Notes under the pieces: generated by a model
Seen by the model: only the letters and a program-made list of their open reading frames with translations
Databases searched by the model: none
What the model was told of the DNA's origin: nothing
In this document: positions 1-63,999 of the stretch, one piece after another
Layout of the letters: each line of letters opens with the position of its first letter
How positions within the stretch are numbered: position 1 is the stretch's first letter
Origin: Candidatus Bathyarchaeota archaeon
Lineage (GTDB): Archaea; Thermoproteota; Bathyarchaeia; Bathyarchaeales; Bathycorpusculaceae
Assembly: GCA_963768425.1 (NCBI GenBank)
Contig: CAVYHV010000017.1
Span: 192,001-256,000 of the forward strand
Reading direction: 5' to 3'
Length of the DNA: 64,000 nt
Translations under genes and position numbers: made by a program

Positions 1-1142
1 TGCATAGTTACACATACTTTTCTGCCCCATGTCGGTGGGATAGAGAAGGTTGTTAATGAACAGAGCAAACGGCTCATGAAACGAAACTTTAAGCCCATGG
101 TTGTCACAAACCGCATCGGCACTCCCAAAACCTACACGGTTGATGGCGTAAGTGTCGAGTGCTATGAATCACTAAACACAGGCTTTCGCCTCGGCATACC
201 CTACTCCATTCCAACGCCTACAAGCCTTGGAACCTTTCTTAAAACCGTAAACGCAAGCGACATAGTCCATGCACACGGTCACCCATATCTAACCTCGCTT
301 ATCGCCGCAAAACTCGCCAAAAGGTACGACAAACCCTTCGTTTTAACCCAGCATAACACATTCATCCAGTACGACAGCATGTTCGACAACGTTGAGCGAC
401 TCAACGACTTGTCAGTAGGGAAGGAGACGCTTAAAGACGCAGACAGAATAATCGCGGTAAGCAACGCAACCAAAGAGTACGTCCTCAGCTTAGGCGCAAA
501 ACCGAGAAAAAATCAAAGTCCTCCACAACGGCGTAGACTTCGATCATTTCAGGCATCTGCCGGGAAAACAGGAGGAAATGCGAGCCAAATTTGGGATCCC
601 AAAGAACGCAGCCGTGGCAATAACTGTGACGCAGGCTGGTTTACAAGAACGGGATTGACACTTTGATTGAAAGCGCAAACCTCGCGATCAAAAAGAACCC
701 GAACCTTGTTTTCCTTGTCGTTGGAAAGGGACCCGACCAAAACGGGGTTCAAGCCAGGATTCGAGAGTTAGGGATAGAGGACAACTTTCGGCTAGCGGGT
801 TTCGTCAGCGACCAGGATTTACCGTTTTGCTATAACGCGGCCGACTTCTTTGTGTTGCCGTCTAAATCTGGTGAAGGTTTGCCTTTGGTTGCGCTTGAAG
901 CCATGGCTTGCGGCTTGCCGGTTGTAGCGACAGACGTCGGGGGGATTAGGGAGATTCTGATGGAAGATCACGGTGAATTGGTGCCGCCTAACCAGCCGGA
1001 GCTGATGGCTAAGGCAATCTTAGAATATTCCTATGCTGATTTATCTGTTGGCATACTGGAGCTCCGTGCTGCGGTTGAAGAAAAGTTTAGTTGGGAAAGA
1101 AACGTTGAAGCTCTCGTGGGAATATACGAAGAGCTTATTTAA
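1..1142 (+). CDS. GT4 family glycosyltransferase (5'-truncated by window edge; frameshifted at ~505-660)
   Basis: Frame 1 is open from base 1 (CIVTHTFLPHVGGIEKVV). Motifs DIVHAH, (shifted) IKVLHNGVD, and in ORF 663-1142 FVLPSKSGEGLPLVALEAMACGLPVVATDVGG. Extra A in the homopolymer at ~507-512. Confidence 0.9.
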
Positions 1143-1184
1143 CCAGATGTGAAAACACTATAGCCTTCAAGATGAGAGTTAGCC

Positions 1185-1922
1185 ATGACATCAAAAGTTG
1201 AAATGGTTTCGGTCGTCATTCCGACACTTAACGAAGCAGGAAACATACTTGAAGCAGTCAACACTATCCACAAAGAGCTAGCGTACCCCAACGAAATCAT
1301 CGTCGTTGACGGCAACTCCACCGACGGAACAATGGAGCTTGTGAAAGACACAAGTTTTTGCCGGCTGATCATCGAGCCAAGACGCGGCTATGGAATAGCT
1401 TTGCGGACTGGCATGAAAAACGCGAAGGGAAACATCATCGTTATGGTTGACGGTGACGGAACCTACGAGGTAAAACACATCAACCGCCTAGTTGAAAGAA
1501 TGCTTGAGAAAGACGCGGACATGGTTTTAGCCACACGCATGTTTGACCCGAAAAAAGCCATGGGATTCACGAATTTCATCGGGAACAAAATCATTACCTT
1601 GGTTTACGACTTCTTTTACAGCCAACTGCTCAGCGACACGCAATCGGGGTTTCGGGCGATATCGCATGAATGCATCGACAACGTGCCTTTGGTGGAAGGG
1701 GACATGGCTTTTGCCACCGAAATGCTGGTGCAGTTCGCCAAGGTCGGGTACAACATGGTTGAAATCCCCACAACTTACAAACCGCGCAAATATGGGCAGA
1801 CTAAGCTTAAACCATTTAAGTCAGGTATCGAAATATTTAGCACCATATTCAAGGGATTTCTTGATGCGGATACTGTTAGAACGTGCCAAAAGCATTGGAG
1901 AGAAAATAGGCTTAAACGATGA
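1185..1922 (+). CDS. GT2 glycosyltransferase, DPM1/polyprenol-phosphate sugar synthase-like
   Basis: SVVIPTLNE, VVDGNSTDGT, GYG, DGDGTY, DTQSGFRAI motifs. Confidence 0.9.
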   Translation: MTSKVEMVSVVIPTLNEAGNILEAVNTIHKELAYPNEIIVVDGNSTDGTMELVKDTSFCRLIIEPRRGYGIALRTGMKNAKGNIIVMVDGDGTYEVKHINRLVERMLEKDADMVLATRMFDPKKAMGFTNFIGNKIITLVYDFFYSQLLSDTQSGFRAISHECIDNVPLVEGDMAFATEMLVQFAKVGYNMVEIPTTYKPRKYGQTKLKPFKSGIEIFSTIFKGFLDADTVRTCQKHWRENRLKR

Positions 1923-2397
1923 CAAAGGCTACTTAGTTGCTATCGCCCTTGCCTTAATCATTATATCATCGTTGCTTGCAGGGTACTACTTGCTCTATAA
2001 GCCGGTGCCTGAAGGCTTCAGCACGATTTATCTGCTTGATTCGCAGAACAAAGCAGAAAATTACCCGCAAACTTTAGTTTCTAACCAGAACAGCACCTTT
2101 ACCTTGCCAGTTACTGTCGTGAACAACATGGGATACACAATGAAATACGAGGTTTTAGTGAAAATCACTGATGACCTAACCTCCTTGCCGGTCAATGTAT
2201 TGCCTATTGACACATACAATTTCACCTTGGGCAATGGTAAAACCTACCAAAAATCAGTCACAGTTACAGAAAACCAAGCTGGAACCTACTCAGTGGTTTT
2301 TGAGCTTTGGCAATACAATTCTGCTTCAGGAACTTACCAGTTTACAAACAACAATGTGCAGAATTATTGTGTCTTAAACATTCAAGTTATAAGTTAA
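1864..2397 (+). CDS. DUF1616-like membrane-anchored protein
   Basis: 3' part of ORF 1543-2397; likely start ATG at 1864. One TM helix followed by EGFSTIYLLDSQNKAENYP and a beta-rich domain ending VVFELW...L.I.V. Confidence 0.7.
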   Translation: MRILLERAKSIGEKIGLNDDKGYLVAIALALIIISSLLAGYYLLYKPVPEGFSTIYLLDSQNKAENYPQTLVSNQNSTFTLPVTVVNNMGYTMKYEVLVKITDDLTSLPVNVLPIDTYNFTLGNGKTYQKSVTVTENQAGTYSVVFELWQYNSASGTYQFTNNNVQNYCVLNIQVIS

Positions 2398-3861
2398 GTT
2401 TTCTTGTGAGTTTCAGCGTATTGTTTTTCGATTGCGACTCTGTGGATGTTGTTGTAGGCGCAGAAAGGTATGATTTTCAAGTCAGGCGTAATGTAGTGGA
2501 CAACGCATCGTCGGACACGATTTACGTCAAAGTTGTATGAATCCATAAACGCCATGCAGCCGAGCAGAAAGATCCGTCTGCGGATTTTGCCAAGCGACTG
2601 ATACGAGGGCGAAAGATGCATTCGCATAATCGAATTCATCAGAGTAAGCATCCCCACTTCCTGAGTTACCAATAGCATATTCATCGAAAGCATAGACGCC
2701 ATAAACAGCGAAGAAAGCAAGGAGAGTTTGCCTTTAGAATCCGCGTTCTCAGCGGTTTTTCGGATGGTGGAGAAGAATCGATCAAAGTTGACGAAACGGT
2801 TAATCGGGAACATTTTGCCGTCTTTGGAAACGTAAATCCAGTTTACGATGCCGCATTGGGGACTGCATGAGAAGAGGGGCCATGGCTTCTGCATGAATTT
2901 ACGCATTATCTTGATCGGAGAAGTCATAACCGACATGGGGTACAAATCGGTCATTTTTATTTCGCCGCCTGTTTGTTTTTCAACGTCTTCTGCAAATGAC
3001 CATTCGCGGAAGTTTTCTCGGAATGGGTTCTCGGTGGCTCTGCCCGTGAAGGCGATAGGTTGGAAAATCAAGCCTCGCACGATATCTGTGTTTTTGGCGG
3101 CGAACCGTATCATGTCGCCGACTTCTTTATCGTTCAGGCTCTTCATCAATGTGTTAACTAGGATGATTTCCATGTCGTATTTGCGGCAAACTTCGATAGC
3201 TTTGAGTTTTTCCTCTAGCAGCGCTTTTCCCCGAATCTTCTTGTTAAAATCGTCATGGAAACTGTCAAACGACAAATAAACAATGTTTAAGCCGTTAGCC
3301 TTTAGCTTCTTCGCCAGACCCGGGGTATCAACCAAATGTGTTCCGTTGGTTGCCAGAATAGTCATGAATTTCAACTTGTGGGCCGCCCCGATGATTTCAG
3401 GCATGTCCTCCCGTTCCAGGGGTTCTCCGCCTGAGAAAAGAATGGCTGGTGGCTTGGGGTTAGCTTGGCTAACGAACTCCAGCATTTTAATTAAGTGCTC
3501 TTTGGTTGGTTCATAATCGGTTCCTTGTTCCGGAAAAGTTGAGAAGCAGATGGCGCATCTGAAGGTTGCAGCGTTTCGTTACGTCGATTACGCCGATAAC
3601 CGTGCCTGAAGCGTGTTTGTTGCAGGTTTCGCATTTGTAGGGGCAGCCTTCTGGGTTTTTAGGGGCGTTCAAGTCGCCGAGGTATTGGAATTGATCATAA
3701 GTTTGCATGTGGTTGAAGACGGGTGTGCTTTGCCAGTGGGTGGCTTCGAATTCGCCGTGCTCTGGGCATTGCTTGGCGATTTTTATTTTGCCGTTAGCTT
3801 GAGTTAGTTGGGCGTCAATTTTCTTTTGGCATTCTGGACAGATGCTTTTTGTGTCGCTCAA
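2394..3861 (-). CDS. tes: Tetraether lipid synthase (Tes / GDGT-MAS, MJ0619-like) family radical SAM enzyme; one frameshift at ~3562
   Basis: N-terminal CPEC...CPEHG metal site; CPYKCETCNKH auxiliary cluster motif; removing one base restores CNLRCAIC; SGGEP; C-terminal CSPQCG...MAFMDSYNFDVNRVRRCVVHY...IPFCAYN. Confidence 0.82.
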
Positions 3862-4754
3862 CTTACAGCCCTCCTACCATGTGGGATAGCCGCTTGTAGT
3901 ATTAAAGCCAACGGAAGCAGAATCATCGACATTGTTACTATACGTTCGTATTTCCGCACACTCGCGATATTTGAAGCTGTAGTTGCCAGGCGAACTGAAG
4001 AATAAATCAATAGGGCGCTCCAAACAAGAATGGGAGCCAAATAGTAAAAGTTAAAGTGGCGCTACGAAAAAGGGAAATGGTGCAAGTAACCCTGTTAAGA
4101 AAAAGAACCCAGCCGCGGCTTTCGATGAGTCTCCGATACCGATTTTCTGCGGAAGCGTGGGATACCCCGTTTTTGAGTCGCCGTCAAGGCTCAGCACGTC
4201 GCGCAGCACGTTGCCGCCTATAGTTCCCAAAGCTATTGGGTAGAGACTGAGAGAAATGATGCTGATGGTCGGCGGGACTAGAGATTGTTGCTTCTCCGTA
4301 GAGAAAAGCGGTTCCTGTTAAGATTCCGACCAAAACGTTGGCTGCAAACCCTGACTTACGTTTTACAAACAGTAGAGTAAACCAGCAGCAAAGCTGAGTC
4401 GGCAGCGATAATCGCGAAACTTAACCAGTTAATGAAGAAAGCCAGAGCTAAACCCGCTGCGAAAAGCACACTTGAAATAGCCACGACCTGCTTCAAGGAC
4501 AGGGAACCTGAGGGTATGGGTCGTTTAGGCTTTATAACTGCGTCACTTTCTCTGTCGAAGTAGTCGTTTATTGCGAAGCCTGCGGAGGTTATGAAAGCCA
4601 TGGAAAAGAAAATCAGCAAAACCGTTTGGACGCTGAGGTCGGCGGGATTTTTTGTGATAGCAAAAGCTGTCAGGAGGGATAAACCGCCAGTCATCAACCA
4701 GTATGGAAGACGCAACAGAGCGATTAGTCCTCTGGCTGGGGCTGGAGCAGCCAT
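3858..4754 (-). CDS. UbiA family prenyltransferase, DGGGP synthase-like (frameshifted)
   Basis: AINDYFDRESDAVIKPKRPIPSG motif; after a frameshift at ~4365 the frame continues KRKSGFAANVLVG...RDVLSLDGDSKTGYPTLP (second Asp-rich motif, divergent); multiple TM helices. Confidence 0.82.
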
Positions 4755-5683
4755 TAAATTTTCCTGTCAGCGATGACTTCTTTAATGCTCTCCTCAAGGC
4801 TTACTTTGGGGCTCCAGTTTAACTCCTTTTTTGCTTTGCTGTTATCGAACCATATGGTGGTAACGTCGCCCTGCCAGGAGACGCCTGTGGTTGTTACGAC
4901 TGTTTTGTCCTGAAGATTAAGGATTTGAAGCATGAGTTTGGCGAGGTCAATTATTTTTATGGTCGTCCCGTAACCTAAATTGTAGGTTCTGCCGTTTGTG
5001 AACTCTTCCGAGCCTACGGTTATCAGCGCGTCAACCACGTCTGAAACATGCACGAAATCGCGTGACTGCAAGCCTGTGCCGATTATTTCAAGTTTGGCCG
5101 GGTTCTTGGCGATTTTGTCTAAAAAGTCATGGATAACCCCGTGGCACCTTAAACCGTATACGTTGGCGAACCTCATGATGGTGACGTCTAATCCGTATTG
5201 GTCGCGGTACATTTCACAGTATTCTTCACCGACAACCTTGGATAACCCGTAACATGAGAAAGGATGAAAACCATAGGTCTCAGGAGTTGGGAAGACAGTT
5301 GGGTTACCGTAGACTGCGGCGCTGGACGCAAAAACCAGTTTGGCATCGTCTTTACGGGCTTTTTCCAGCACATGAACGGTTCCTTTAGCGTTAGTTTCAA
5401 AATCTATCAGCGGATTCTCCATGGAGTATGGAACAACAACTTGAGCGGCTAAATGGTATATTAGGTCGGCTTTTTCCACGGAAAGCAGCTTCTTGGGGTC
5501 GAGGATGTCACCTTTCACAAGTTTTGCTTTGCCGACATCTTTTACATTTTCCATTTTGCCGCTTGACAAGTTATCGTAAATCGTCAAATCGGAAGTTAAG
5601 CCGGCAAGGCGCTTGCACAAATGGAACCCGATGAAGCCTGCGCCGCCCGTTACAAGAATCTTTTTCCCCTTAAGTTCTCCCAT
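4754..5683 (-). CDS. NAD-dependent sugar epimerase/dehydratase (GalE-like extended SDR)
   Basis: TGGAGFIG, SSAAVYG, YGLSK, RDFVHVSD; likely start ATG at 5683. Confidence 0.92.
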   Translation of the reverse strand: MGELKGKKILVTGGAGFIGFHLCKRLAGLTSDLTIYDNLSSGKMENVKDVGKAKLVKGDILDPKKLLSVEKADLIYHLAAQVVVPYSMENPLIDFETNAKGTVHVLEKARKDDAKLVFASSAAVYGNPTVFPTPETYGFHPFSCYGLSKVVGEEYCEMYRDQYGLDVTIMRFANVYGLRCHGVIHDFLDKIAKNPAKLEIIGTGLQSRDFVHVSDVVDALITVGSEEFTNGRTYNLGYGTTIKIIDLAKLMLQILNLQDKTVVTTTGVSWQGDVTTIWFDNSKAKKELNWSPKVSLEESIKEVIADRKI

Positions 5684-5730
5684 AACTATCACGACAAAGT
5701 CTATATTCCATTTCAATTAGTGTAGGGTAT

Positions 5731-6560
5731 ATGTCGCCTGAGAAAGCTATAAAAACTTTTAGGGATTTGCTGGCTTTCCTAACAATAATCCCCGCGGGCG
5801 GAAAAGAAGATTTCATATTCACAACGGCGGAGCACGTTTACCTTTTCCCCGTCATCGGCGGCTTAATCGGCGTGCTTGCAGGAGCCTACTTTCTCGGCGC
5901 AAACTTTATTGTCCACTTTTTGCTCGGGGCAGTTAACACGTTAATCGCCTTGCCAGTCGACACGCTGTCGAAGCTTGCTGTTGCGGCTATGACAGTGGCG
6001 TTCCTACTGGTCATAACTGGACTCCAACATTTTGACGGCTTAATAGACTTAGGAAACGCGTTTGGCTCAAGAAACCTGCACGACCGCAAGATGGTCGCCC
6101 ACGCTTGGACTGTTACTTATTGGGGAGCATTGCTGGCAATGATTGTCGAGTTTGCAGCATTCGCAGGGTTGTTTTTGATTAACCCGCTCTACGCTTTCGG
6201 AGCCATTTTGCCGCTGAACTTTCAGCGAAACTATCTATGGTCACAATCGTCTGGGTAGGCAAACCCACACATAAGGGGTTAGGCTCAATTTTCCTGCAAA
6301 AAGCAAAAATCAAACTTAACATAATCGCTTACGCACTCTCTATCATTCTTGTATATCCTTTCTTCGCCTTGATAGGCAAACCTTACTTGGGCTTAATCGC
6401 AGTTGGGCTGGTTCTGGTCAGCATCCCAGTGGCGTTGGCGATGGAGAAAGTTGCAGAAAACATCTTTGGCGGAGTCTCAGGGGACGTAATAGGCGCAACA
6501 AATGAGGTTTCTCGTGCAGTTGCGCTTATTTTATTTGCAGGCGTGTTGATTCTTCTATGA
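5731..6560 (+). CDS. cobS: Adenosylcobinamide-GDP ribazoletransferase (cobalamin synthase); frameshift at ~6207
   Basis: FLTIIP, FPVIGGLIG, TGLQHFDGLID, GLG, FGGVSGDVIGATNE across ORFs 5731-6258 and 6237-6560. Confidence 0.88.
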
Positions 6561-7174
6561 AAGTTCCCGCGTTGATTATGGCTGGCGGCAAAGGCAAACG
6601 CATCGGGTTACCTATAGAGAAGCCGCTTCTGCCTTTTCTAGGCAAGCCACTACTTGACTGGGTTGCAGAGGCAGTGAGTTGTGCAACGAAGGTTTCTGAA
6701 TTTTACGTTGTGACGAGCTCGAACACTCCCGAAACTGAGAAGCATAGTTTAAGCATGGGATGGAAGGTTCTACGAACGGATGCCAAGGGGTACCATAACG
6801 ATTTGAAGCAGGCAGCCTTGCAAGCGAACCTTTCAGGTCCCATTTTGACCATTCCAGCGGATTCCCCGGCTATAACAGGCAAGTTCCTCGACAAAATAGT
6901 GGACCAGTTTGAACGGTGTGGGAAAGACTTCTACGCGGTTTTCGTACCCATCCCGGCCCGCGAAAAGTTGGGGCTGTCCGTCGATTCCACCGATGAGTAC
7001 AAAGGAGAATGGTATGCTGTATCGGGAGTCAATATCATTGATGGCACCAAAAGTCAGACGGAAGGAAAAATTGAGACAAATGCCTTCATCACGGAAGAAA
7101 TCGAAGTGCTACTTAACATTAACACACTAAGAGACTTGGAAACAGCGGAAAAAGTCATGAAAAGCAAACTTTAA
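6557..7174 (+). CDS. cobY: Adenosylcobinamide-phosphate guanylyltransferase (archaeal CobY)
   Basis: ALIMAGGKGKR...EKPL...GKPL NTP-transferase motif, GY..DL, NINT.DL; ATGA overlap with cobS. Confidence 0.88.
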   Translation: MKVPALIMAGGKGKRIGLPIEKPLLPFLGKPLLDWVAEAVSCATKVSEFYVVTSSNTPETEKHSLSMGWKVLRTDAKGYHNDLKQAALQANLSGPILTIPADSPAITGKFLDKIVDQFERCGKDFYAVFVPIPAREKLGLSVDSTDEYKGEWYAVSGVNIIDGTKSQTEGKIETNAFITEEIEVLLNINTLRDLETAEKVMKSKL

Positions 7175-7247: not shown

Positions 7248-8681
7248 ATGAGTCTGCTTAGCCATGATAGCTTCTGGAATGCAGTGATAACACTGCCTGT
7301 GACTAAGCGGATGCTCAAGCTGTCACTAAAAAAGTGTCCAGCGTGCGGCAGAACTGTTCTTGAAGCAGCATTGGATTCTTACGCGAGAAAAACTGATCGG
7401 GACTGCCCAAAATGCAGCGCTCTTTATTCGCAGATTATTGGTTTCTGGGTCGAGTTTCTCAGGCGCAGTTTAAATATTAAACGGGAAAAAGTTGAGAAAC
7501 TCCTCGCTGACCCATATGCACGTCGCGCGGTTTTAAATTTGACGAAAAGCTTCGGCACTTTGGGCATCAAAAAACCGATTTCTCTTTGCGCGCCTTTCCT
7601 CATTGTCTGGGACTTCACACATAAATGCAACCTGAACTGCAAACACTGCTATTCGAACAGCGGCGTCGTCAAAGAGGAAGAGCTTTCAACGGAGCAGGCT
7701 AAGGCGGTGGTTGACCAGCTTGCAGATGCGGGAGTGACTGCATTGGCTTTTTCAGGCGGCGAGCCCCTGACGCGGAAGGACTTCTTTGAGGTTGCGAAGC
7801 ATGCGGCAGACCGGGGGCTTTACGTGTCGGTAGCCACAAATGGAACTTTGCTTACTAAGGAGAACGTGACGAAGCTCAAACAAGCCAAGGTCAACTACCT
7901 TGACATAAGCATTGACGGGGCATCAGCCAAGACGCATGATGAGTTTCGCGGTGTGCCAGGCGCGTTTGACAAGGCGGTTACTGGGCTGAAAAACTGCGTG
8001 GAAGCCGACCTATGTGTTTGCATTGCTTCAACGGCAACAAAAACCAACTTTGAAGAGTTCCCTAAAATTGTCGATTTAGCCGAGGAAGTGGGCGCCGAAC
8101 GGTTCACTTACTTCAATTTCATCCCCACAGGCAGAGGCAAAGCGCACTACGACCAAGACCTCTCGCCCGAAGAACGTGAAAAACTGATGCGATACCTGCT
8201 CGCGCGAATGTCAAAGGGCTGCAAAACTACCATTCTCACTACGGCGCCGCAGCTCGCCCGGGTTGGCTTGCAATGTCAGGGGCCAGAGGGCACAGGTGAA
8301 GTCACTATGTCCATGGCACATATGCAAACCGTCAAAGTAACCAAGAAAGCCGTGCCGCTGGCAGACTTCATCGGCGGCTGCGGAGCAGGCAGACTCTACT
8401 GTTCTTTGTCGCCCCAAGGAGACGTACACCCATGCGTCTTTCTGCCAGTGAACGTCGGTAACCTAAAAAACGAAAATTTTCAGGAAATCTGGCTCAATGC
8501 TCCCCTCTTCAAATCTTTGCGGAACAGAGGCAACATTAAAGGAGCCTGCGGAAAATGCACGTACAAGTACATTTGCGGCGGATGCAGGGCACGTTCAGCG
8601 GCTTACCATAACGGCGACATGCTCAACTCAGACCCAGGCTGCATAATGGGAAAATATGCGGAGGCTGCCAAAAACGCCTGA
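7248..8681 (+). CDS. Radical SAM/SPASM protein with N-terminal Cys-rich extension
   Basis: APFLIVWDFTHKCNLNCKHC, FSGGEPL, SPASM GCGAG...PC...CGKCTYKYICGGCRAR...DPGC; N-terminal CPAC and CPKC. Confidence 0.92.
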   Translation: MSLLSHDSFWNAVITLPVTKRMLKLSLKKCPACGRTVLEAALDSYARKTDRDCPKCSALYSQIIGFWVEFLRRSLNIKREKVEKLLADPYARRAVLNLTKSFGTLGIKKPISLCAPFLIVWDFTHKCNLNCKHCYSNSGVVKEEELSTEQAKAVVDQLADAGVTALAFSGGEPLTRKDFFEVAKHAADRGLYVSVATNGTLLTKENVTKLKQAKVNYLDISIDGASAKTHDEFRGVPGAFDKAVTGLKNCVEADLCVCIASTATKTNFEEFPKIVDLAEEVGAERFTYFNFIPTGRGKAHYDQDLSPEEREKLMRYLLARMSKGCKTTILTTAPQLARVGLQCQGPEGTGEVTMSMAHMQTVKVTKKAVPLADFIGGCGAGRLYCSLSPQGDVHPCVFLPVNVGNLKNENFQEIWLNAPLFKSLRNRGNIKGACGKCTYKYICGGCRARSAAYHNGDMLNSDPGCIMGKYAEAAKNA

Positions 8682-11821: not shown

Positions 11822-11823
11822 GG

Positions 11824-18717: not shown

Positions 18718-18742
18718 ATGAGTTTTTTCTCCCGTAAGTTTC

Positions 18743-51607: not shown

Positions 51608-51737
51608 GGCGCTTGGTAACCAATAGCTTGCCGAATCAAATTGTGCTTTTTTCGGAGACCTACGGTGCACAAGCACTTTTTACATAACATTTATTATGTT
51701 ATCGAACCGTTTTAAAGGTAAAATCGAGGGGACTTGG

Positions 51738-56525: not shown

Positions 56526-57608
56526 TTGATGGCTTCAAACAAGTCACCACTATTCATGGTGGTTTGGCGCTGTACAAGGAACTGTGTCGGCAATTGCATG
56601 TACTGTAGCTACACAAAGGATTATGCAGCTGAAACGGAACTGGATACTAAAGGCGCCAAGAAAATGGTTGACGAAATTCACGATTTTGGTTCGCCCTGGT
56701 TCGGAATCAGCGGTGGAGAACCTTTGGTTCGAAACGACGTTTTCGACGTTATTGCCTACGCCGAAGAAAAATACGACATGAAAGTCAGCCTTATAACAAG
56801 CGGTTTCGCGTGGGATGAAGAACGATTTGACAAACTCAGAAAGTACAATGTCCACACCGCAATCAGCCTGGATGGAAACAGGGAATCAAACGAAATAATT
56901 CGACGAAAAGGCAGCTATGACAAAGCATTACATGCCATGAAAAAGTTATCTGAAGTTGGATTACTCGATTGCATTGTTACAACCATGACCAAATACAACA
57001 TTAAACACATGGCGCATCCAGCTGCACTCGCAGAGGAATACAAAGCGCGCATGGTAGTTTATCACAATCTAGTTCCCGTTGGGAGAGCAGGAAGTAACAT
57101 GCCTGACTTAGCACCTACCCCACAACAATACGAGGAAGCTTTTGACGAAATTTATGATATTCAACGGAAACTGTATGGCAAAGTTAAGGTCAATGTTTAT
57201 TCGCCTTTCTATGCAAGGATTGTGCGCCAGAAAAACCCAGTGGACTTCTGGGACTGGTACCATGAAGGCTACCTTGGCAGATGCACCATCGGCGGTAACT
57301 ACATTGGCATAACCGAAAACGGCGACTACCGAAGCTGCGGATTCCACGAAGGCTACCGTTTAGGCAACGTCAAAGACAAGAAATTAACCAAGGTTTGGGA
57401 TGATCTACAGCACAGTGAATTGCATCTTAAACTGCGGGACAAAAGCAACATCAAAGGCCGATGCGGAGTTTGCGAGTACCGAGAAATCTGCGGCGGATGT
57501 AGAACTAGAGCCGAATACTACACGGGCGACCTATTTGAGTCAGATCCAGCCTGCAGTTATATTCCGAAAGTTCTGCGAGAAGATCCCAACTACTTAAAAA
57601 AGCAGTAA
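56526..57608 (+). CDS. Radical SAM/SPASM protein (paralog of 45607-46704)
   Basis: CVGNCMYC, SGGEPL, PVGRA, SPASM CGVCEYREICGGCRTRA...DPAC. Confidence 0.92.
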   Translation: MMASNKSPLFMVVWRCTRNCVGNCMYCSYTKDYAAETELDTKGAKKMVDEIHDFGSPWFGISGGEPLVRNDVFDVIAYAEEKYDMKVSLITSGFAWDEERFDKLRKYNVHTAISLDGNRESNEIIRRKGSYDKALHAMKKLSEVGLLDCIVTTMTKYNIKHMAHPAALAEEYKARMVVYHNLVPVGRAGSNMPDLAPTPQQYEEAFDEIYDIQRKLYGKVKVNVYSPFYARIVRQKNPVDFWDWYHEGYLGRCTIGGNYIGITENGDYRSCGFHEGYRLGNVKDKKLTKVWDDLQHSELHLKLRDKSNIKGRCGVCEYREICGGCRTRAEYYTGDLFESDPACSYIPKVLREDPNYLKKQ

Positions 57609-57792: not shown

Positions 57793-60204
57793 CTATTGTG
57801 TTTGGTTGTAGTTATTTAGTATTTTGAAAATAACGTATCGGTCATTTGAGTAGATTTGCTGGAGAAATTTCAAATGGACTATGTTAGGGTCAAGCTGATT
57901 TTTGTCGTAAACTATGAATTCAATGTTGTTCTGGGCTATGTAGTCTTTGTAGCTACTAGTGTATATTGTGAAGGGGTCAGATTTGAAGCTAAATAGGCTT
58001 TCAAGATTGCTGGGCGACAACGCTGTAAAGTTGCTTTTTGAAAGACAGAGAATTTGGTATTGCCGGTTAACAATCTGGTCAGTGTTGATTTCACTGAATT
58101 GATACTGGTACCTTATTGCATCAATTTGCCCCCCGCCCAGTGCCCCAATGTTCCCCCAGTCTGGTGGATCGGTGAAGTTGAATGCACAGGCGACTTGGTC
58201 TTTGTCGTCATAAACTCCGACGTAGATGTCGGAAGTTGAATTTGGCAAATTAACTACTGCCCAGAGATTCCCGTCGGTCGTTTTTGAAGTTACATTCCAA
58301 GGGCTTACCCAATTCATAATCTGCGGAATTTGAGCCTTGTCGAAATCGAGACCAAAGTAGTTGGTAAAGTAGAGCGTTACATTTGAAATATCACCGTTCA
58401 AAGGAGTTAAAGCCCAAGAAATGTCGGCCGGGTAAGAATAGTTTTGAACAAGCATTGTCTCCGTTAAGGCTACATATTCGTTGGAAAACCGAATCTCTAA
58501 TTGTGTGGGATTAATTTGCTGGTCAAAGTAAATGTCCCGTGTCAAATTGGTGAAGGGAAAATTGTAATTCTTGCCGTTTTGGGTGAAAGAAATAAAATCC
58601 CCTGCGGTGGAGGAAGACAAGACTTGATACCAAATTCCGTTGATGGAAATGTAGCTTTCGAAGAAAGTATTTCCATAGGCTTCGTAAGCTCGAAACAGGT
58701 TCTGAGGGTCCTGAATATCGTATGATAGACTCAAAACTGACCATGCGACGTCATTTGTCTCCACAGTTGCTGAAGTTTGAGCAATAACATTTTTGCCAGA
58801 AAACGCGGAAAACCAAAAACCAGGGATTTCAGTATCAACGACCGTCGCGTTATTCGGGTAGTTCTGCTGGAGCCAAATGCCTGCATCAAGTGCTTTCACA
58901 TCTGTTGTCGAGTAGAAAACGCTCGCCTGTATTATTTTGCCGTAAACCGTGTCGGAACGAAAAACGAGCACCAAACACATCAACACTATTAAAGAAACCG
59001 TTAGAATCTTTAGCCAGTTCCCGCGAACAGAACCAAGAATCGGCTTGCTAAAGGTCCTTACAAACTTCGCTGAAAAGCCGTTGCCAGCTTTTTGCCCCTT
59101 GACTCCAACTACATCAGATTGAGGAATGCCCTGATAAATAGAGAGGCTTTTGCTGTTCTTCGAGTAGAATATGACAAATTTTTCTTGAATGAAAACTACA
59201 GAAACAGCAGCGAAAATAGCCATCGCAGGAGTAAGATAATAAACGAACCATTGAAATGGCATGAAAAATCCGAAAAGGTAGGACTCAGCGAAAAAAAGTG
59301 GAACAAAGAAACTGATCATCAATATTGCATAGGAAAAAAGTTTTTTTTCTTTTCTCAGGAGAAAGAAGGAAATGACAATGCCGCCTATGGCAAAAAAGAA
59401 AATGAAGCCGAAATTAACCATAAACGCCTTAAAGCTGACAGAGGGAATCTGGAAAGCGTAGGTTTTTACGGCAAAAAACACGTATTCAATGACAAGCCCA
59501 ATGTAACCGAACACAGCTTTAAAATAATAGAGAAAAGCTATTCCGCCGCCCACAATCAAGGCTAATACAACTTTAAGGGAGGCCCCTCTTGAGTTTATCA
59601 GCATATAAATTAGAATTGGAGGCAACATAAATGCCGCGAGGAAAGCGGCAAGCTGATGGGACAAAACTAGTGCGAAAGCCGCAAGAAAAGTAACCACAAG
59701 GTAACCGAACTCCCCTGTGGCTTTAGTTAAGTAAAGAAGCATAAAAAGAATAAAGGCTATGCCAAGTACTGTGGTGTAGCCGCCAAACTGATTAGCTTCA
59801 AAAACAGGAAAACACATCAAAAGTAAAACGGCTCCTACAGCTCCGACTTTCTTACCAAAAAACTTGCTACCAATCAGATAAACAGCCATGAAAAGTAGCC
59901 AATCAGCCACTGCTGCAAGAGCTTTAACCAAGAAAATCATCTGCCCGATGCCAGCTGCACCAGTGAAAGAAATAAGCATGGAAAGCAGAAGCTCGTAAAG
60001 CGGAGGCGTCCAACCTAAGTTTTCTAAGGGTATTCTACCTGTATTTAGAAAAATCTGTGCTTTCACAAGATGAACAGCAGGGTCATTTCCGAGTACTACC
60101 CCGTTCATTGATACAACAGTGTAGAAGATGAGTAAAACAAGCACAGAGAAAATTGTTATGAAGGCAACTTCAAGCTGTTTCTCATTTGCCATTTTACCCA
60201 TCAA
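57793..60204 (-). CDS. GT-C fold-like multi-TM glycosyltransferase with large extracellular domain
   Basis: GNDPAVH in the first external loop, about 12 TM segments, C-terminal I.FIV...Y.N.....IFKI; many NxS/T sequons. Confidence 0.65.
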   Translation of the reverse strand: MMGKMANEKQLEVAFITIFSVLVLLIFYTVVSMNGVVLGNDPAVHLVKAQIFLNTGRIPLENLGWTPPLYELLLSMLISFTGAAGIGQMIFLVKALAAVADWLLFMAVYLIGSKFFGKKVGAVGAVLLLMCFPVFEANQFGGYTTVLGIAFILFMLLYLTKATGEFGYLVVTFLAAFALVLSHQLAAFLAAFMLPPILIYMLINSRGASLKVVLALIVGGGIAFLYYFKAVFGYIGLVIEYVFFAVKTYAFQIPSVSFKAFMVNFGFIFFFAIGGIVISFFLLRKEKKLFSYAILMISFFVPLFFAESYLFGFFMPFQWFVYYLTPAMAIFAAVSVVFIQEKFVIFYSKNSKSLSIYQGIPQSDVVGVKGQKAGNGFSAKFVRTFSKPILGSVRGNWLKILTVSLIVLMCLVLVFRSDTVYGKIIQASVFYSTTDVKALDAGIWLQQNYPNNATVVDTEIPGFWFSAFSGKNVIAQTSATVETNDVAWSVLSLSYDIQDPQNLFRAYEAYGNTFFESYISINGIWYQVLSSSTAGDFISFTQNGKNYNFPFTNLTRDIYFDQQINPTQLEIRFSNEYVALTETMLVQNYSYPADISWALTPLNGDISNVTLYFTNYFGLDFDKAQIPQIMNWVSPWNVTSKTTDGNLWAVVNLPNSTSDIYVGVYDDKDQVACAFNFTDPPDWGNIGALGGGQIDAIRYQYQFSEINTDQIVNRQYQILCLSKSNFTALSPSNLESLFSFKSDPFTIYTSSYKDYIAQNNIEFIVYDKNQLDPNIVHLKFLQQIYSNDRYVIFKILNNYNQTQ

Positions 60205-60212
60205 GAAGCCAG

Positions 60213-62522
60213 TTATCCTCCATTCTGATTGACGTTCGTCCTGACTTTAAAGATGGCAACTTCATTGTTAATAAATACCAAGCTAAATTCTGGGTCGTCA
60301 GCAAATTTTGTGTTCACCCCAAAATCACGGTTTGCAATGTAAGAAACCGAGTTTGCTTGCAACTCCGCTTTATAATCAAATGTAGTTAAGGGCAAACTCA
60401 CATCTGGTTTTTGCGCGTTTTGAGCGTCAGAAATTAATGTTTGGTTCAAGCTATTTGTGTTTAATATCTCATTTTCCGTAACTGGGTAAATGCCTACAAA
60501 AATTTGTATTTCTGCAGAGGACTTGCCTTGTAAGTTGTAAGAAAGCTGGGTTATGCAGGGATTTTGTGAGTTAAACGCCTTCACTTGTGGCTGATTTTCC
60601 TCAAAAACAAGTTGGCCGACCTCTTTCAGACCAGTATCTAACATTGCTACAGTGTTATTGGACGGCTGCAAGAATTGACCTTGGGCATTTATTATGAAAT
60701 TGATCCAGTCTAAAGAAACGTTCTGATTGATGCTCTGAAGTACTATAGTCATGTTTGCGAATGCCACCCCTTGAGAGACAGTTAAAATTTCGGAGTAACT
60801 GAAGTCATTGTTTGCTTTGTCTACGATAATGGATGGGCTGTTGCTTTGTGCACCATCTAGCTGCATATTGACTACCGGCATTTGCGTTACGTCAGTGGAC
60901 TGCCTGGATCCAACGCTCTGTGAGAGCAAAGTAATCTCACTGTTGTTGAACTGGAAGAAAGGAACGGGAAAAGGTGTCCAGCTAAGGTCGGCGAGAAATT
61001 CAGGGTTATGTCTTCCGATGTACCCGCCGTCTTCTCGGACCTGAATGTAGCCGTTATCGATCATGTAATCAGTATCAAGCAGATTAGAAGCAAAAGTTGC
61101 TGGCGCTAACTCACTGTCAACCGTTAAGTATTGCGGTTGAACCGCGCTCAAGGTAGGCCGTTGTGCAAAACCGCCAAGCCACCATCCGTAAAGAGCGTCA
61201 GAAACAAAAACTGACCCGGGTGCAGTGTTTTGCTCAGCCCAGTGAATTGCTTGGTATCCGGGTTTGTCCATAGTTTGGTAGAAGCTTTGAATAGTCACGC
61301 CTTGCCAAGGAGTGAGAAAGATAGGAAGGGTAACGAGAAAGATAAGTATGAAGCCTAACGTGAAGATGGAGTAAACTCTCTTGTGGGTTATGACAGCGGA
61401 GATTCTGGTAGCCCACTTGTCTGCGGTCCTCGTTGTTTTCTGCATTTGGCGTGTCAGGTTGTGGTAAGGGACTGTTAGGTGTGCAAAATAGGTTGAACCG
61501 TGATCAATCATCATGGCGAAAAGTATGATAACGGGTAAAACCAGGAAATAGAGAAAACGATTGTAATCGACTAAAAGCCCGAACAAGTAGCCTTGTGTCA
61601 GGATCAGCGGAACGAAAAGCCACATTATTACCAGGAAAGTTGGAAGCGAAATGAATCGGCGTTTATATTTTTTAGATAATAGAAGCAGTGGGAGAAGGCA
61701 GGCGAAGAGCGCTAAGACTTCATCCATAGGAAGCACTCTTGTCGCAATTATCGCTTGATCAATAGCGCTAACAGCGGAAAACGACGAGTTAGCGCTCAAG
61801 TAAGCAGGAACCGCCTTTACAAGAAACGGTGAAACAAGAATTGCGCCTCCTACCAGTGGAAGTAACCAACTTAGAACGTTTTTTCGTGTTGTTCCGAACG
61901 TTCTAGGCGCTACAAGCGCAAAAAACACAGTGGCGGCTGTTATTCCTAAGAAAACGGCAGCGCTTAACGAATGAGTCAAGAATATGGATCCGACCAAGAT
62001 TGAACCCGAAACAAGAAAAGGACTCATCGAAAACCTTTCTCTTCGAAGAAACAGGTAAAAAGTCAAAGGAATTAAAAGCAGTGTTATCACGTTGGGGTAG
62101 CCCGCCCACATCAACATTTCGATATCAAAACGTGAAACTGCGACTAAAAACGCAACAATAAAAGCTGCTGACTCAGACCATACTGTTCTAGTTATCAAAA
62201 AAGCGGCTAAAACAATAAGGGAAGAAAATAGTGCAACAATTAGAGCCTGTGCCACATAGTCTGTTAAGCCCGTCATGAGCATTACGGCTGAAGCAAAAAT
62301 GTGGTACCCCGGAAAGGTTAAGGATTGGCCTCCACCCATCTGGAAGTAGTCGTAGAGGAAATTGGTATTGCCTGAACCCGTTATAGAGTTGATGACGCTT
62401 GCGTGTAACCCTATGTCAGCGCCAGGCGGGAACCCTTGCCAAAACATTAGAACGATACGGTAAATAAAAGAGAAAACGAAAATCAAAAGCAGCAGAACAT
62501 ATTTCTTGTTTGCATTGAACAC
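60213..62522 (-). CDS. GT-C fold-like multi-TM glycosyltransferase (paralog)
   Basis: GADIGLH, FPGYH, THSLS, RFLYF, SDALYGWW; about 12 TM segments plus extracellular domain. Confidence 0.65.
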   Translation of the reverse strand: MFNANKKYVLLLLIFVFSFIYRIVLMFWQGFPPGADIGLHASVINSITGSGNTNFLYDYFQMGGGQSLTFPGYHIFASAVMLMTGLTDYVAQALIVALFSSLIVLAAFLITRTVWSESAAFIVAFLVAVSRFDIEMLMWAGYPNVITLLLIPLTFYLFLRRERFSMSPFLVSGSILVGSIFLTHSLSAAVFLGITAATVFFALVAPRTFGTTRKNVLSWLLPLVGGAILVSPFLVKAVPAYLSANSSFSAVSAIDQAIIATRVLPMDEVLALFACLLPLLLLSKKYKRRFISLPTFLVIMWLFVPLILTQGYLFGLLVDYNRFLYFLVLPVIILFAMMIDHGSTYFAHLTVPYHNLTRQMQKTTRTADKWATRISAVITHKRVYSIFTLGFILIFLVTLPIFLTPWQGVTIQSFYQTMDKPGYQAIHWAEQNTAPGSVFVSDALYGWWLGGFAQRPTLSAVQPQYLTVDSELAPATFASNLLDTDYMIDNGYIQVREDGGYIGRHNPEFLADLSWTPFPVPFFQFNNSEITLLSQSVGSRQSTDVTQMPVVNMQLDGAQSNSPSIIVDKANNDFSYSEILTVSQGVAFANMTIVLQSINQNVSLDWINFIINAQGQFLQPSNNTVAMLDTGLKEVGQLVFEENQPQVKAFNSQNPCITQLSYNLQGKSSAEIQIFVGIYPVTENEILNTNSLNQTLISDAQNAQKPDVSLPLTTFDYKAELQANSVSYIANRDFGVNTKFADDPEFSLVFINNEVAIFKVRTNVNQNGG

Positions 62523-62640
62523 TTGCGCCCCTCCCTTTCCGTGAAATTCTTTTGTGTTTGATGAAATTGTTAGTCAAAGCTTAAATATGAAAATCGAGTA
62601 TAAAAAGCCCAGAGTAATAAAAAAGGAAAAAGGTGTTTAA

Positions 62641-63069
62641 ATGTCGTGGCTTAAATCTATGATGGAAAAAGAGCCTCCAGAACCAGAGAATCCAATCGGC
62701 ATAGTCGTTATAGGCAATATTGAACCGGACATGCATGACACAGCAAAAGAAGCAGTTAGGCGATCACTAAAACGCGCTGGATTCAAAACAATCGACGTAG
62801 GAAAAAGCGTTGCTCCACAAGTTTTCGTTGACAAGGCAAAAGAGAACAATGCGAACTTGATTGCTATTTCAGTGAACACTGTTCCAGCAAAGAACAATCT
62901 TGCAAAACTTGATGAAGCATTGAAGGCAGCTGGCCTCAAAGGAAAAATCGCCATAATAATGGGCGGTGCTGCAGTCAAGAAAGAAGACGCTGACGCTATG
63001 GGTGCACTCTTCGGCAAAAACAAAGAAGAAGCTCCTGAACTTGCAAAGAAAGCAATAGGCAAAAAATAG
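62641..63069 (+). CDS. Stand-alone corrinoid (B12-binding) protein
   Basis: DMHDTAK (DxHxxG variant), AGF..IDVG..V, MGGAAV; no N-terminal cap domain. Confidence 0.85.
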   Translation: MSWLKSMMEKEPPEPENPIGIVVIGNIEPDMHDTAKEAVRRSLKRAGFKTIDVGKSVAPQVFVDKAKENNANLIAISVNTVPAKNNLAKLDEALKAAGLKGKIAIIMGGAAVKKEDADAMGALFGKNKEEAPELAKKAIGKK

Positions 63070-63087
63070 TCCTTCAGATGAGGAAAA

Positions 63088-63999
63088 ATGTCCTTTAAAT
63101 TCAACACGAAACAAAATATTTACACGGTTGGAAAAGCTAAAGTAGGCGGTCAGCCAGGAGAACTACCGACTTTTCTGATTGGTTCCATCTTTTGGCTCGG
63201 CCAGAAAATGGTTCAAGACGCAAACAAGGGTATTTTTGATGCAAAGGCAGCAGAAGACATAATCAACACTATGCAGACGCAAAGCGACATTACTGGTGTA
63301 CAGTTCGCTTTTGACATTGTAGGAACTACTGATATGGCCTTTGAAAAATACATCGATTTCGTTGCAAAACACAGCGACGCACCTCTTATGCTCGATGCTA
63401 TGAGCCCAAAGACACGTATGACGGCAGCTACTATCGCAAAGAAGATGGGCCTTGCAGACCGGTGTCTCTACAACTCAGTCTACAAAGGTGTGACTGATGC
63501 GGAACTGGCGAATTTGAAAGAAAGCGGCGTCAAAATGTCTATAGTGCTTGCTGATGACCCTAAAGATACCACAATGGAAGGTAAAATGAAGGTCATCCAG
63601 GAAGCATTAGCGTTGGCAGAAAAAGGCGGAATCACTAAGCCTTTGATTGACACGGCTATTCCCGCCTTCGCTCCAGACATGGGTACTGCGGTTAGAACAA
63701 TACCGATCATGAAAGAGAAGTACGGTCACCCAGTAGGCTTAGGCAGCGGAAACGTTGTCACAACCATGGGTTGGGTTAAAGCAAACGTCGCGAAAGAATT
63801 CCGCCCCGGGTGCAGAACCTCAACCAACTCTATCATGCAGACAGTAGGCGCTAACTGGCTTATGATTGGACCCGCAGAGCAAGCAGAATGGATTTTCCCC
63901 GCCGTTGCAATAACTGACACATACATTGCTTCAGCCGCAGGCGACCTTGGAACTAGACCAATAGACGAGACTCATCCAATCTACAAAATGTTCATGTAG
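63088..63999 (+). CDS. MtrH/MtgA-like pterin-dependent methyltransferase
   Basis: VGGQPGELPTFLIGSIF, P.MLDA, YNS, PLIDTA, G.P.G.G.GN, GAN.LM.GP. Confidence 0.88.
   Translation: MSFKFNTKQNIYTVGKAKVGGQPGELPTFLIGSIFWLGQKMVQDANKGIFDAKAAEDIINTMQTQSDITGVQFAFDIVGTTDMAFEKYIDFVAKHSDAPLMLDAMSPKTRMTAATIAKKMGLADRCLYNSVYKGVTDAELANLKESGVKMSIVLADDPKDTTMEGKMKVIQEALALAEKGGITKPLIDTAIPAFAPDMGTAVRTIPIMKEKYGHPVGLGSGNVVTTMGWVKANVAKEFRPGCRTSTNSIMQTVGANWLMIGPAEQAEWIFPAVAITDTYIASAAGDLGTRPIDETHPIYKMFM

Follow-up and report, generated by a model that had tools for sequence, protein, structure and literature searches.

The stretch of DNA described here, hereafter the window, comprises 64,000 nucleotides of the genome of Candidatus Bathyarchaeota archaeon (GCA_963768425.1, contig CAVYHV010000017.1, positions 192,001 to 256,000; G000:C17:192001-256000 in the numbering used below), and forms the central part of an island of about 75 kb, in which radical S-adenosylmethionine (SAM) enzymes are linked with glycosyltransferases (GTs), lipid-type genes and genes for cobamide assembly. 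The source assembly (G000; 2.96 Mb in 33 contigs), that of a peat-soil archaeon, is 91% complete. The gene inventory of the window was compiled from an open reading frame (ORF) listing and Pfam scans of 60 frames; positions are window coordinates with the strand in brackets, except where a contig (C) is named.

The window encodes 13 radical SAM enzymes, all of which contain the CX3CX2C motif and which are assigned by Pfam to eight B12-binding enzymes (r1 to r8), three SPASM enzymes (SPASM1 to SPASM3), one HemN/ChuW-like enzyme and one enzyme resembling tetraether synthase (Tes), exactly the set listed in a first-pass annotation made from the letters alone. Each of the eight B12-binding enzymes possesses both PF02310 and PF04055 domains; they are located at 15762..17194 (r1, -; frame break near 16687), 17350..18717 (r2, -), 18743..20215 (r3, -), 21181..22579 (r4, +; frame break at about 22160), 27929..29323 (r5, +), 30459..31922 (r6, +), 41277..42743 (r7, +) and 50200..51546 (r8, +), where r1 is identified by Pfam, r3, r5, r6 and r7 by Pfam and tree placement, and r8 additionally by NCBIfam models. 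SPASM2 (45607..46704, +) and SPASM3 (56526..57608, +) are AhbD-like by Pfam and NCBIfam, the former lacking an N-terminal extension, while the HemN/ChuW-like gene (51696..53037, +) is broken at 52792 and has an intact ortholog of 433 aa in the closed genome G003, which scores 180 bits against a model cut-off of 400. A 14th radical SAM gene, r9, lies just to the right of the window (C17:256.4-257.9 kb). Counted as PF04055 matches, which are not exactly genes, 13 of the 47 in the genome fall within the window and 14 within 66 kb including r9, compared with about 1.05 expected in 66 kb of 2.96 Mb (Poisson P(≥14) = 8e-12), and the same stretch holds 10 of the 18 B12-binding matches of the genome. 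About a third of the radical SAM enzymes of this organism are thus concentrated in one gene island. No tRNA gene was found within the window by a tRNA search.

Interleaved with these enzymes are genes for CobS, a CobY-like protein, a CobD-like aminotransferase, CbiB, three DUF71 proteins, a UbiA prenyltransferase, a short-chain dehydrogenase/reductase (SDR) epimerase, five GT2/GT4 glycosyltransferases, a class I methyltransferase, a DUF362 protein, an RnfD-ferredoxin fusion (RnfD-Fd), and a corrinoid protein paired with MtrH, all of which were recovered by Pfam as the first-pass annotation had reported. Two PQQ-type propeller surface proteins, an Amidohydro_3 protein and an AsnC-type regulator were found in addition.

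The island is conserved in two families (f1, to which the source genus belongs, and f7) of one Bathyarchaeia order, the relatives of Bathy-6 and Ca. Bathyarchaeum. The synteny comparison proposed with the first-pass annotation was carried out, and the genes proved to be linked across genera, contrary to the scattered orthologs that it had named as the opposite outcome. In the closed genome G003 of the same genus, the island is collinear with the whole window, from MtrH to GT4, except for an insert at about 34.7-41.2 kb; four further members of the genus (G001, G012, G014 and G016) keep most genes with local inversions, and the more distant G008 and G017 have a compact core with one B12 enzyme. 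The island recurs, rearranged, in six further genera of f1 and in f7, from which ten loci were compared. A compact 35-kb version with a nearly full set is present in G192, in the order GT4, Tes2, UbiA2, CobS2, CobY2, SPASM1, GTs, CobD2, four to five B12 enzymes, CbiB2, SPASM2, rSAM401 (a label for one of the island radical SAM enzymes) and RnfD-Fd. Family f7 keeps CbiB2 with r3-r6, r8, SPASM1-3, rSAM401 and RnfD-Fd, and in the closed f7 genome G115 the genes are distributed over C1:431-483 kb, with CobS1 at 431 kb, CbiB2 at 454 kb and CobY-CobS2-Tes2-UbiA2 at 478-483 kb. Among the ten other-genus loci, rSAM401 and RnfD-Fd occur in eight, an r6 ortholog in seven, a SPASM2 ortholog (at least 55%) likewise in seven, and the amidohydrolase in five. 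Two loci of genus g17 (G254 and G239) contain Tes2 through CobD2 as well as CbiB2 and no B12 enzyme in the stretch fetched, the g17 genomes having 6-12 B12-binding matches elsewhere or beside CbiB2. No orthologs of r1 and r2 were found outside the genus in the regions fetched, and the propellers and the putative GT-C genes are the least conserved parts. Relatives identified by a SPASM1 search (alignment of seven orthologs) include metagenome-assembled genomes (MAGs) labelled Ca. Bathyarchaeia or Bathyarchaeota, a complete 'Bathy6' MAG and Ca. Bathycorpusculum soli, and Ca. Bathyarchaeum sp. encodes a SPASM1 relative at 56% identity.

Near the left end of the window, three abutting genes on the minus strand encode Tes2 (2394..3861), the prenyltransferase UbiA2 (3861..4754; PF01040 on 4356-4754) and an SDR sugar epimerase/dehydratase (4754..5716; PF16363/PF01370, 168.8 bits on the GalE model against a cut-off of 262). 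Tes2 contains an N-terminal HMPTM zinc ribbon (PF23545) and the motif CPYKCETC, the zinc ribbon and the radical SAM core lying in two frames (break at about 3558-3569), and it is assigned to the tetraether synthase family, members of which are predicted to join two archaeols into a glycerol dialkyl glycerol tetraether (GDGT). The split window copy scores 346.5 + 99.6 bits on the Tes equivalog NF045702 (319.6 for the C-terminal piece alone), compared with 465.6 for the intact G003 ortholog at a cut-off of 450 and 457-494 for the island copies of G192, G115 and G221. A stronger Tes (668-681 bits) is encoded outside the island in all four relatives searched (G003, G192, G115 and G221). In the 91% complete G000 only the island copy was found; its high-scoring Tes may sit in an assembly gap. 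The UbiA2 ortholog of G003 (294 aa) reaches 171-173 bits where the cut-offs are 269-296, and of the two UbiA genes that G003 has in all, one is inside the island. The island Tes and UbiA are hence second, diverged copies: the core-synthesis role given to this pair in the first-pass annotation would fall to second copies, relatives having a better Tes elsewhere.

Back to back with these genes, a plus-strand operon encodes CobS2 (5731..6560), CobY2 (6557..7174), SPASM1 (7248..8681) and a DUF362 protein (8656..9633; PF04015, 162.9 bits; 26-nt overlap with SPASM1), which overlap or abut. SPASM1 consists of an AhbD-like SPASM core (AhbD model positions 1-337 on residues 118-467, 315 bits; cut-off 500) preceded by a 117-aa extension, where four cysteine residues (C30, C33, C53 and C56) are invariant in all seven orthologs aligned. 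This organization matches that of Gms, the synthase of glycerol monoalkyl glycerol tetraethers (GMGTs), which was defined as a homolog of AhbD extended at its N-terminus by about 100 aa (Garcia et al. 2024, PMC11214058; this and the other papers named below are cited for the parts of their text that were accessible). SPASM1 is accordingly provisionally identified, by its architecture, as a candidate GMGT synthase. Homologs 39-49% identical to it occur in Archaeoglobus, Thermococcus sp., Methanococci, Methanosuratincola and others, most of them covering the extension, as do homologs in Methanomassiliicoccus, and each match in the 80 loci fetched resembles SPASM1 (39-92%) more than it does SPASM2 or SPASM3. 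DUF362 follows SPASM1 in 15 of 15 f1-type loci, and CobS-CobY directly precede it in 12 of the 14 informative f1 loci.

No radical SAM enzyme of the window reaches the cut-off of an unrelated characterised NCBIfam family, an outcome that the first-pass annotation had raised as contrary to its proposal, and none of the B12-binding enzymes reaches any NCBIfam cut-off; their best full-length scores (200-265 bits, cut-offs 481-750) are to the BchE, HpnJ, ApyD or Sden_1168 P-methyltransferase models. A FastTree phylogeny of 79 rows, none dropped, resolves the clades r4 (with r2, a genus-level duplicate inside it), r6, r7, r8 and r3/r5/r9 with support of 96-100, and the six other B12 radical SAM enzymes of the genome form separate long branches. 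Members of both f1 and f7 are present in the r4, r6, r8 and r3/r5 clades, and the r7 clade contains f1 only. The array therefore appears to comprise five order-level orthogroups plus genus-level duplicates, with r4, r6, r8 and r3/r5 as probable old paralogs. No ortholog of r1 was seen in the relatives' regions fetched, where its best matches are r3/r5 orthologs. The r6 gene lies within 1.6 kb of CbiB2 in five of the ten other-genus loci and 5.7-5.9 kb from it in two more. A PDB sequence search with r5 retrieved AprD4, OxsB and TokK (E 1e-13 to 1e-25) and was uninformative.

A B12 radical SAM gene directly adjoins a Gms homolog in eight of 63 distant loci, with a fragment in a ninth, and six of these enzymes were used for comparison, that of locus L094 being omitted at 92% identity to L092. 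With these Gms-adjacent enzymes r3, r5, r8 and r9 share 37-40% identity (E 1e-102 to 1e-111), r7 shares 35-37% (E down to 1e-94), and r2, r4 and r6 share 31-35% (E 1e-68 to 1e-83); the B12 radical SAM enzymes outside the island share 30-36%. A similarity threshold of E below about 1e-70 has been published for Gmm, and it is applied here to Gms-adjacent enzymes and not to characterised Gmm proteins. In a second tree (IQ-TREE quick mode, 39 rows: all 15 from G000, the rows of G192, G115 and G274, one of G003 and seven Gms-adjacent enzymes; 47 rows of the first tree omitted), the r3/r5/r7/r8/r9 clade is placed, with weak support (SH-aLRT 87), on that side of the tree where the Gms-adjacent enzymes stand. 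Two further leads were abandoned: TIGR04190, taken as a proxy for the GDGT ring synthase, was reached at its cut-off by no genome, the Sulfolobus control included, and a link to butanetriol tetraethers received no support, as identities of only 26-32% were seen between the three B12 radical SAM enzymes of a Methanomassiliicoccus MAG and the enzymes of the island.

Bathyarchaeota account for 188 Gms and 307 Gmm sequences, many of their genomes having several Gmm2-clade copies (PMC11214058), and one bathyarchaeal Gmm homolog, itself a B12 radical SAM enzyme, is a tetraether desaturase (Garcia et al. 2025 preprint, 10.1101/2025.10.20.683597). The island enzymes may therefore also catalyse reactions other than methylation.

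All four genes for cobamide loop assembly in the window are second, diverged copies, the canonical ones lying elsewhere or on the flanks. CbiB2 (29426..30421, +) passes both equivalog cut-offs (NF002281, 274.3 against 273; TIGR00380, 231.2 against 165.9) and shares 44% identity with CbiB1 on C6; the CbiB identities show a bimodal distribution across 301 genomes of the class, CbiB2-type proteins (52-86%) occurring in 36 genomes, all of f1 or f7, and the others not exceeding 48%. CobD2 (13143..14264, +), a threonine-phosphate-decarboxylase-like protein, falls 5 bits short of TIGR01140 (285.1 against 290.55) and is 36% identical to CobD1 (C6:267.3-268.4 kb). CobY2, a MobA-like nucleotidyltransferase (PF12804), misses the cut-offs of CobY (NF045495, 94.6 against 250) and TIGR00454 (115.1 against 174.7) and shares 36-37% identity with CobY1 (C17:188.4-189.0 kb); it is found (at least 50%) in 30 genomes, all of f1. 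CobS2 (PF02654 in two frames; break at about 6209) is 33-40% identical to CobS1 (C17:189.0-189.7 kb), its G003 ortholog scores 108.7 bits against the TIGR00317 equivalog cut-off of 110, and on PF02654 the CobS2-type proteins score 85-96 bits compared with 128-147 for the CobS1 type. Two CobS proteins each are encoded by G003, G192, G115 and G221, and f7 has a single CobY, beside CobS2. No second CobT was found within the window by the Pfam scans, the second set thus being without a CobT of its own.

Canonical salvage genes are present on both sides: the left flank contains CbiO-CbiO-CbiQ, CobY1, CobS1, a CobT-like gene and a DUF71 gene, and the right flank contains r9, CbiZ, a nitrilase-family gene, an asparagine-synthase-like gene, acetyl-CoA synthetases and a bacterial-type SAM synthetase. 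The description of the locus in the first-pass annotation as having its own cobamide-completion genes holds in that the genes are there, but they are duplicates between two flanks of ordinary salvage genes. The SAM synthetase (PF00438/PF02772/PF02773; G000:C17:270648-272006, -), about 15 kb to the right of the island, has an N-terminal extension of about 115 aa; archaea usually use another methionine adenosyltransferase family. About 9 kb to the left of the window, before CbiO/CbiQ, there is a weak match to a DDE transposase (IS240-type; G000:C17:182283-183167, -).

The three DUF71 PP-loop proteins of the window, which have orthologs only within the genus, differ in their signature motif, which is EPGEYH in DUF71a (14575..15306, +; PF01902), EDGQGYH in DUF71b (20284..20991, -) and lost in DUF71c (49016..49786, -), while the copy on the flank has EGGEYH and a copy on C30 has EGGEIE of the Dph6 type. 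In the DUF71-B12 subgroup, for which a role in B12 salvage has been predicted, the motif ENGEF/YH replaces the Dph6 motif EGGE/DxE (PMC3541065).

HemB (PF00490) and CbiC (PF02570) were not found in G000, in the closed G003 or in G192, so that at least three genomes with the island are corrin auxotrophs and siroheme-derived (Ahb/heme-type) chemistry is therefore excluded there. Both are present in G014 (C1:2553-2559 kb) and G115 (C1:1480-1510 kb). The presence of HemB and CbiC thus varies inside a single genus, a closed genome being among those without them: the de novo corrin pathway comes and goes between close relatives, and the island is retained. The tandem AsnC/Lrp-type protein (26809..27831, +) scores 35-36 bits on the AhbA/B models against cut-offs of 125-140 and is of the regulator type. 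It has a 74% identical paralog at G000:C11:522-1478, on a 13-kb contig, and weaker paralogs elsewhere.

These data bear on the possibility that the second set, the Amidohydro_3 protein and the DUF71 paralogs rebuild salvaged corrinoids into another cobamide, with some of the radical SAM enzymes modifying the lower ligand or the corrin. The loop-assembly set is complete, with CbiB2 passing its cut-offs and CobD2 just short of its own, it lies in organisms that cannot make corrin, and the amidohydrolase (32622..34190, -) stands beside CbiB2 in five of the ten loci; remodelling is also favoured by the B12-subgroup-like YH motifs of the DUF71 copies (motif from PMC3541065). The single CobY of f7, beside CobS2, must then serve ordinary cobamide synthesis as well. 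However, BzaD (TIGR04385; cut-off 450) gives 98-142 bits on seven full-length B12 enzymes and 84-123 on two fragments, the Pfam scans revealed neither a ThiC-like Bza enzyme nor a second CobT within the window, and such a pathway leaves Tes2, UbiA2, the Gms-type enzyme and the glycosyltransferases unexplained. Natural corrinoids are also not known to contain C-methylations introduced by radical SAM enzymes. Remodelling is thus considered quite improbable, and the Bza/Ahb/HemN-type tetrapyrrole chemistry offered as the alternative in the first-pass annotation is weakened by the missing HemB and CbiC in three genomes and by AhbA/B and BzaD scores far below the cut-offs.

A second alternative is an island held together by B12 and not by a common product, in which users and makers of cobamides are kept side by side for co-regulation or co-inheritance and the substrates of the radical SAM enzymes are unrelated, for example lignin-derived or methoxylated aromatics. 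The salvage genes on both flanks, the division of the B12 enzymes into three deep clades, the presence of a CbiB in all 30 genomes with CobY2, and the interleaving of the PQQ propellers and of the corrinoid protein and MtrH-like methyltransferase pair (62641..63999, +; MtrH 263.6 bits against a cut-off of 271.4) would all be expected from it, and Bathy-6 MAGs have been reported to encode 7-20 B12 radical SAM enzymes each, for which lignin metabolism was suggested (PMC11697101). Yet Tes2, UbiA2, the Gms-type enzyme and the glycosyltransferases do not depend on B12 and are linked more tightly than any other part, five of the nine B12 enzymes are similar to those found next to Gms homologs, and the accessible part of PMC11697101 gives no specific support for the lignin idea. 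This alternative is regarded as unlikely.

The five glycosyltransferases are encoded by GT4 (1..1142, +; Glyco_transf_4 and Glycos_transf_1 in two frames with a break near 629, intact orthologs being 363-394 aa), GT2a (1185..1922, +; PF00535, 93 bits) and the operon GT4b-GT2b-GT2c (9630..12540, -; Pfam), which is conserved together with the island. Toward the right end, two large polytopic proteins (57793..62522, -) carry 9-10 hydrophobic segments toward the N-terminus, a soluble second half and no Pfam match at E≤1. The nearest ESM-Atlas clusters of the first are automatically named GT39, more distant clusters having PMT_2 in 12-57% of their members, and no relative of it was obtained in a PDB sequence search; a GT-C identity of the two proteins may be taken as a lead. 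Their earlier designation as GT-C proteins agrees with the polytopic N-terminal half and not with the Pfam family signature, which is absent. The PQQ-type beta-propeller surface proteins (42750..45392, -, and 46774..49050, +; Pfam and hydrophobic-segment scan) enclose SPASM2.

From these genes it could be argued that the island serves the maturation of a surface glycan, protein or peptide, the GTs, GT-C-like proteins and epimerase building the glycan and the B12 and SPASM enzymes methylating or cross-linking sugars, a peptide or the propellers. Five GTs and two possible GT-C proteins would suit such a pathway, as would the position of SPASM2 between two secreted propellers in f1, the scores of 125-236 bits of the B12 enzymes on models for ribosomally synthesised and post-translationally modified peptides (RiPPs) such as ApyD, and the reported 31% identity of Gmm to the moenomycin methylase MoeK5 (PMC11214058). 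All RiPP models nevertheless remain far below their cut-offs, the propellers and GT-C genes are the least conserved, and no precursor peptide candidate turned up, no dedicated search for small conserved ORFs having been made; the 188-aa protein hyp188 (55912..56478, +; weak winged-helix signal, one hydrophobic segment) looks like a regulator. Maturation of this kind is very unlikely to be the common function.

Other genes of the window encode a DUF1616 membrane protein (1543..2397, +; PF07760, 46.5 bits; 5' limit unsure), a DUF4234-like membrane protein (12605..13159, +; Pfam and hydrophobic-segment scan), the class I methyltransferase (22583..23399, -; two frame breaks, 276 aa in G003), a protein with four hydrophobic segments and no family (53400..54068, -), which stands beside RnfD-Fd in relatives, and RnfD-Fd itself (54248..55642, -; Pfam), an RnfD-like membrane protein fused to a 2x[4Fe-4S] ferredoxin, of which no other RnfD copy was found in the genome by tblastn. 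For the Amidohydro_3 protein, identified by Pfam, a PDB sequence search gave two uncharacterised hydrolases and was uninformative. Pfam at E≤1 yielded weak zinc-ribbon or helix-turn-helix hints for hyp188, hyp222, hyp100, the SPASM1 extension, both large membrane proteins and the insert genes. A 924-aa surface protein with Ig-like (Big) domains (23621-26312, -) is intact in G003 and split here among five or more frames; tblastn with its pieces gave 6-30 matches elsewhere in the genome. The stretch 34743-41255 may be a strain-specific insertion. It contains a GNAT gene and five hypothetical genes and has the lowest G+C of the window (0.39-0.43); except for one hyp160 match in G012, it has no counterpart in the fetched island regions of relatives, and in the genome hyp136 has five matches and hyp160 is 68% identical to C17:15775-16251.

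At least nine genes of the window are broken by frameshifts. Compared with intact orthologs in four relatives, these include GT4, Tes, CobS, r4, the methyltransferase (twice), the HemN-like gene and the 924-aa surface protein (several times), and UbiA and r1 are also broken; CobS1, outside the window, is likewise split. Short-read contigs from two peat DNA runs and two RNA-library runs, 92-99% alike, were aligned to window positions 1-20000, and 1-base indels were found at 629 (GT4), 3558/3560 (Tes), 3892, 4059/4060, 4279 and 4370 (UbiA), 6209 (CobS) and 16687 (r1), exactly the positions of the frame breaks; the two DNA runs leave positions 14008-15341 uncovered. Long ORFs cover 0.65 of the window compared with 0.38-0.62 of the rest of the genome, and 0.61-0.84 of the orthologous regions of relatives (at least 0.70 in 15 of 18). 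Because the indels match the break sites and the ORF cover of the window is no lower than that of the genome, assembly indels, rather than decay of the island, are the most likely cause of the breaks. An argument to the same end, by which the window UbiA was the only digeranylgeranylglyceryl phosphate (DGGGP) synthase according to tblastn, was dropped as other UbiA genes are present. Contigs of the RNA libraries overlap parts of GT2a, Tes, CobY, SPASM1, DUF362, GT4b, CobD, r1 and r3, a weak hint that these genes are expressed, and the peat metagenome runs contain 21-25% of the sampled words from window positions 1-9000.

The best supported reading of the island, which draws on family resemblance and gene position and is given a probability of roughly 0.5, is a pathway for the tailoring and glycosylation of tetraether lipids packaged with cobamide salvage and loop assembly. 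Tes2 and UbiA2 would provide or modify the membrane-spanning isoprenoid core, the Gms-type SPASM1 would cross-link two chains to give GMGT-type lipids, and the B12 radical SAM array would act on unactivated chain or backbone carbons by methylation, perhaps also by desaturation or cyclisation. The SDR epimerase, the five GT2/GT4 enzymes and perhaps the two GT-C-like proteins would add sugar head groups, and the membrane-bound RnfD-ferredoxin fusion would feed low-potential electrons. CobD2, CbiB2, CobY2 and CobS2, with the flanking salvage genes (the energy-coupling factor (ECF) CbiO/Q transporter, DUF71-B12, CobT-CobS1-CobY1 and CbiZ), would complete salvaged corrinoids for the B12 enzymes.

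Several observations speak against lipid tailoring. Gms-type enzymes need no B12, and CobS2 and CobY2 are in the SPASM1 operon; cofactor supply therefore does not explain CobS2-CobY2-SPASM1. As canonical Tes and UbiA are encoded elsewhere, the island copies may do something other than core synthesis. No B12 enzyme adjoins SPASM1, the neighbours of which are CobY2 and DUF362, the nearest B12 enzyme starting about 7 kb off; r2, r4 and r6 are no nearer to the Gms-adjacent enzymes than are the B12 enzymes outside the island; the deep tree nodes are weakly supported; and the label 'Gmm-like' refers to position beside Gms homologs and not to characterised Gms, Gmm, Ted, Grs or Cds sequences. SPASM2, SPASM3 and the HemN-like enzyme are without a lipid precedent for comparison, PQQ propellers, the corrinoid protein with MtrH and surface proteins are interleaved in the island, and the published view connects the B12 radical SAM enzymes of Bathy-6 with lignin metabolism, for which the accessible part of the paper gives no specific evidence (PMC11697101).

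Read as a lipid-tailoring locus, the island may be compared, by description, with the Gms-Gmm-Grs cluster of Thermococcus guaymasensis (PMC11214058), with which it shares an AhbD-like SPASM enzyme with an N-terminal extension of about 100 aa and B12 radical SAM enzymes in the same region. Unlike that cluster, it contains nine B12 enzymes in several old clades, none of them beside the Gms-type gene, which is in an operon with the CobS and CobY paralogs and DUF362, and it links Tes and UbiA paralogs, GTs and a full second set for the cobamide loop. Ted and Cgm/Pgm (10.1101/2025.10.20.683597) are likewise B12 radical SAM enzymes acting on GDGT chains, one of them from a bathyarchaeal MAG, and Ted shows that Gmm homologs need not be methylases; in contrast to the Ted system, no AttH-like hydratase was found within the window by the Pfam scans. 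The loop genes belong to the same families as those of archaeal cobamide salvage and loop assembly (CbiZ, CbiB, CobD, CobY, CobS and CobT; DUF71-B12, PMC3541065), and the flanks contain the canonical DUF71-CobT-CobS1-CobY1 operon and CbiZ, but the island set is a second one, 33-44% identical to the first, without CobT and embedded in lipid, GT and radical SAM operons. Expansions of B12 radical SAM and PQQ proteins have been described for Bathy-6 (PMC11697101), which is the same lineage with the same gene families; in its accessible part, that study counts genes and ascribes them to lignin, and does not describe one conserved island, a link to Tes or Gms, or cobamide paralogs. A literature search found no paper describing the island or its cobamide paralogs, so the novelty claimed by the first-pass annotation holds for these two, but not for the multiple Gmm-clade copies (PMC11214058) or the many B12 radical SAM enzymes of Bathy-6 (PMC11697101), which are already in print. 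The island is best described as a variant of the clusters that tailor tetraethers, one with a puzzling link to paralogs for cobamide loop assembly.

A more speculative proposal, and very much a long shot, is that the second CobD/CbiB/CobY/CobS set is not a spare and that CobS2 may join activated cobinamide to an acceptor other than alpha-ribazole phosphate in a combined lipid-cofactor pathway, the grounds being its place in the operon of the Gms-type gene, its back-to-back arrangement with Tes2 and UbiA2, and the lack of an accompanying CobT. The single CobY of f7, beside CobS2, suggests that one type of activated donor serves both CobS proteins, which may differ in the acceptor. A new acceptor may give a dedicated cobamide for membrane-bound B12 radical SAM enzymes, or a corrinoid tethered to a lipid or glycolipid. 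Separately, and with as little confidence, one of the B12 orthogroups could methylate the glycerol backbone, as in butanetriol or pentanetriol tetraethers.

Peat and sediments contain large pools of cross-linked and extra-methylated archaeal tetraethers, which are used as climate proxies, and Bathyarchaeia, which are thought to be major tetraether producers, have barely been cultured. The island provides a conserved list of candidates for this chemistry, namely Tes2, a Gms-type enzyme, five old B12 orthogroups, two SPASM enzymes and one HemN-like enzyme. In addition, a full second cobamide loop set lies within the lipid operons of organisms unable to make corrin, which bears on how B12-dependent membrane enzymes obtain their cofactor.

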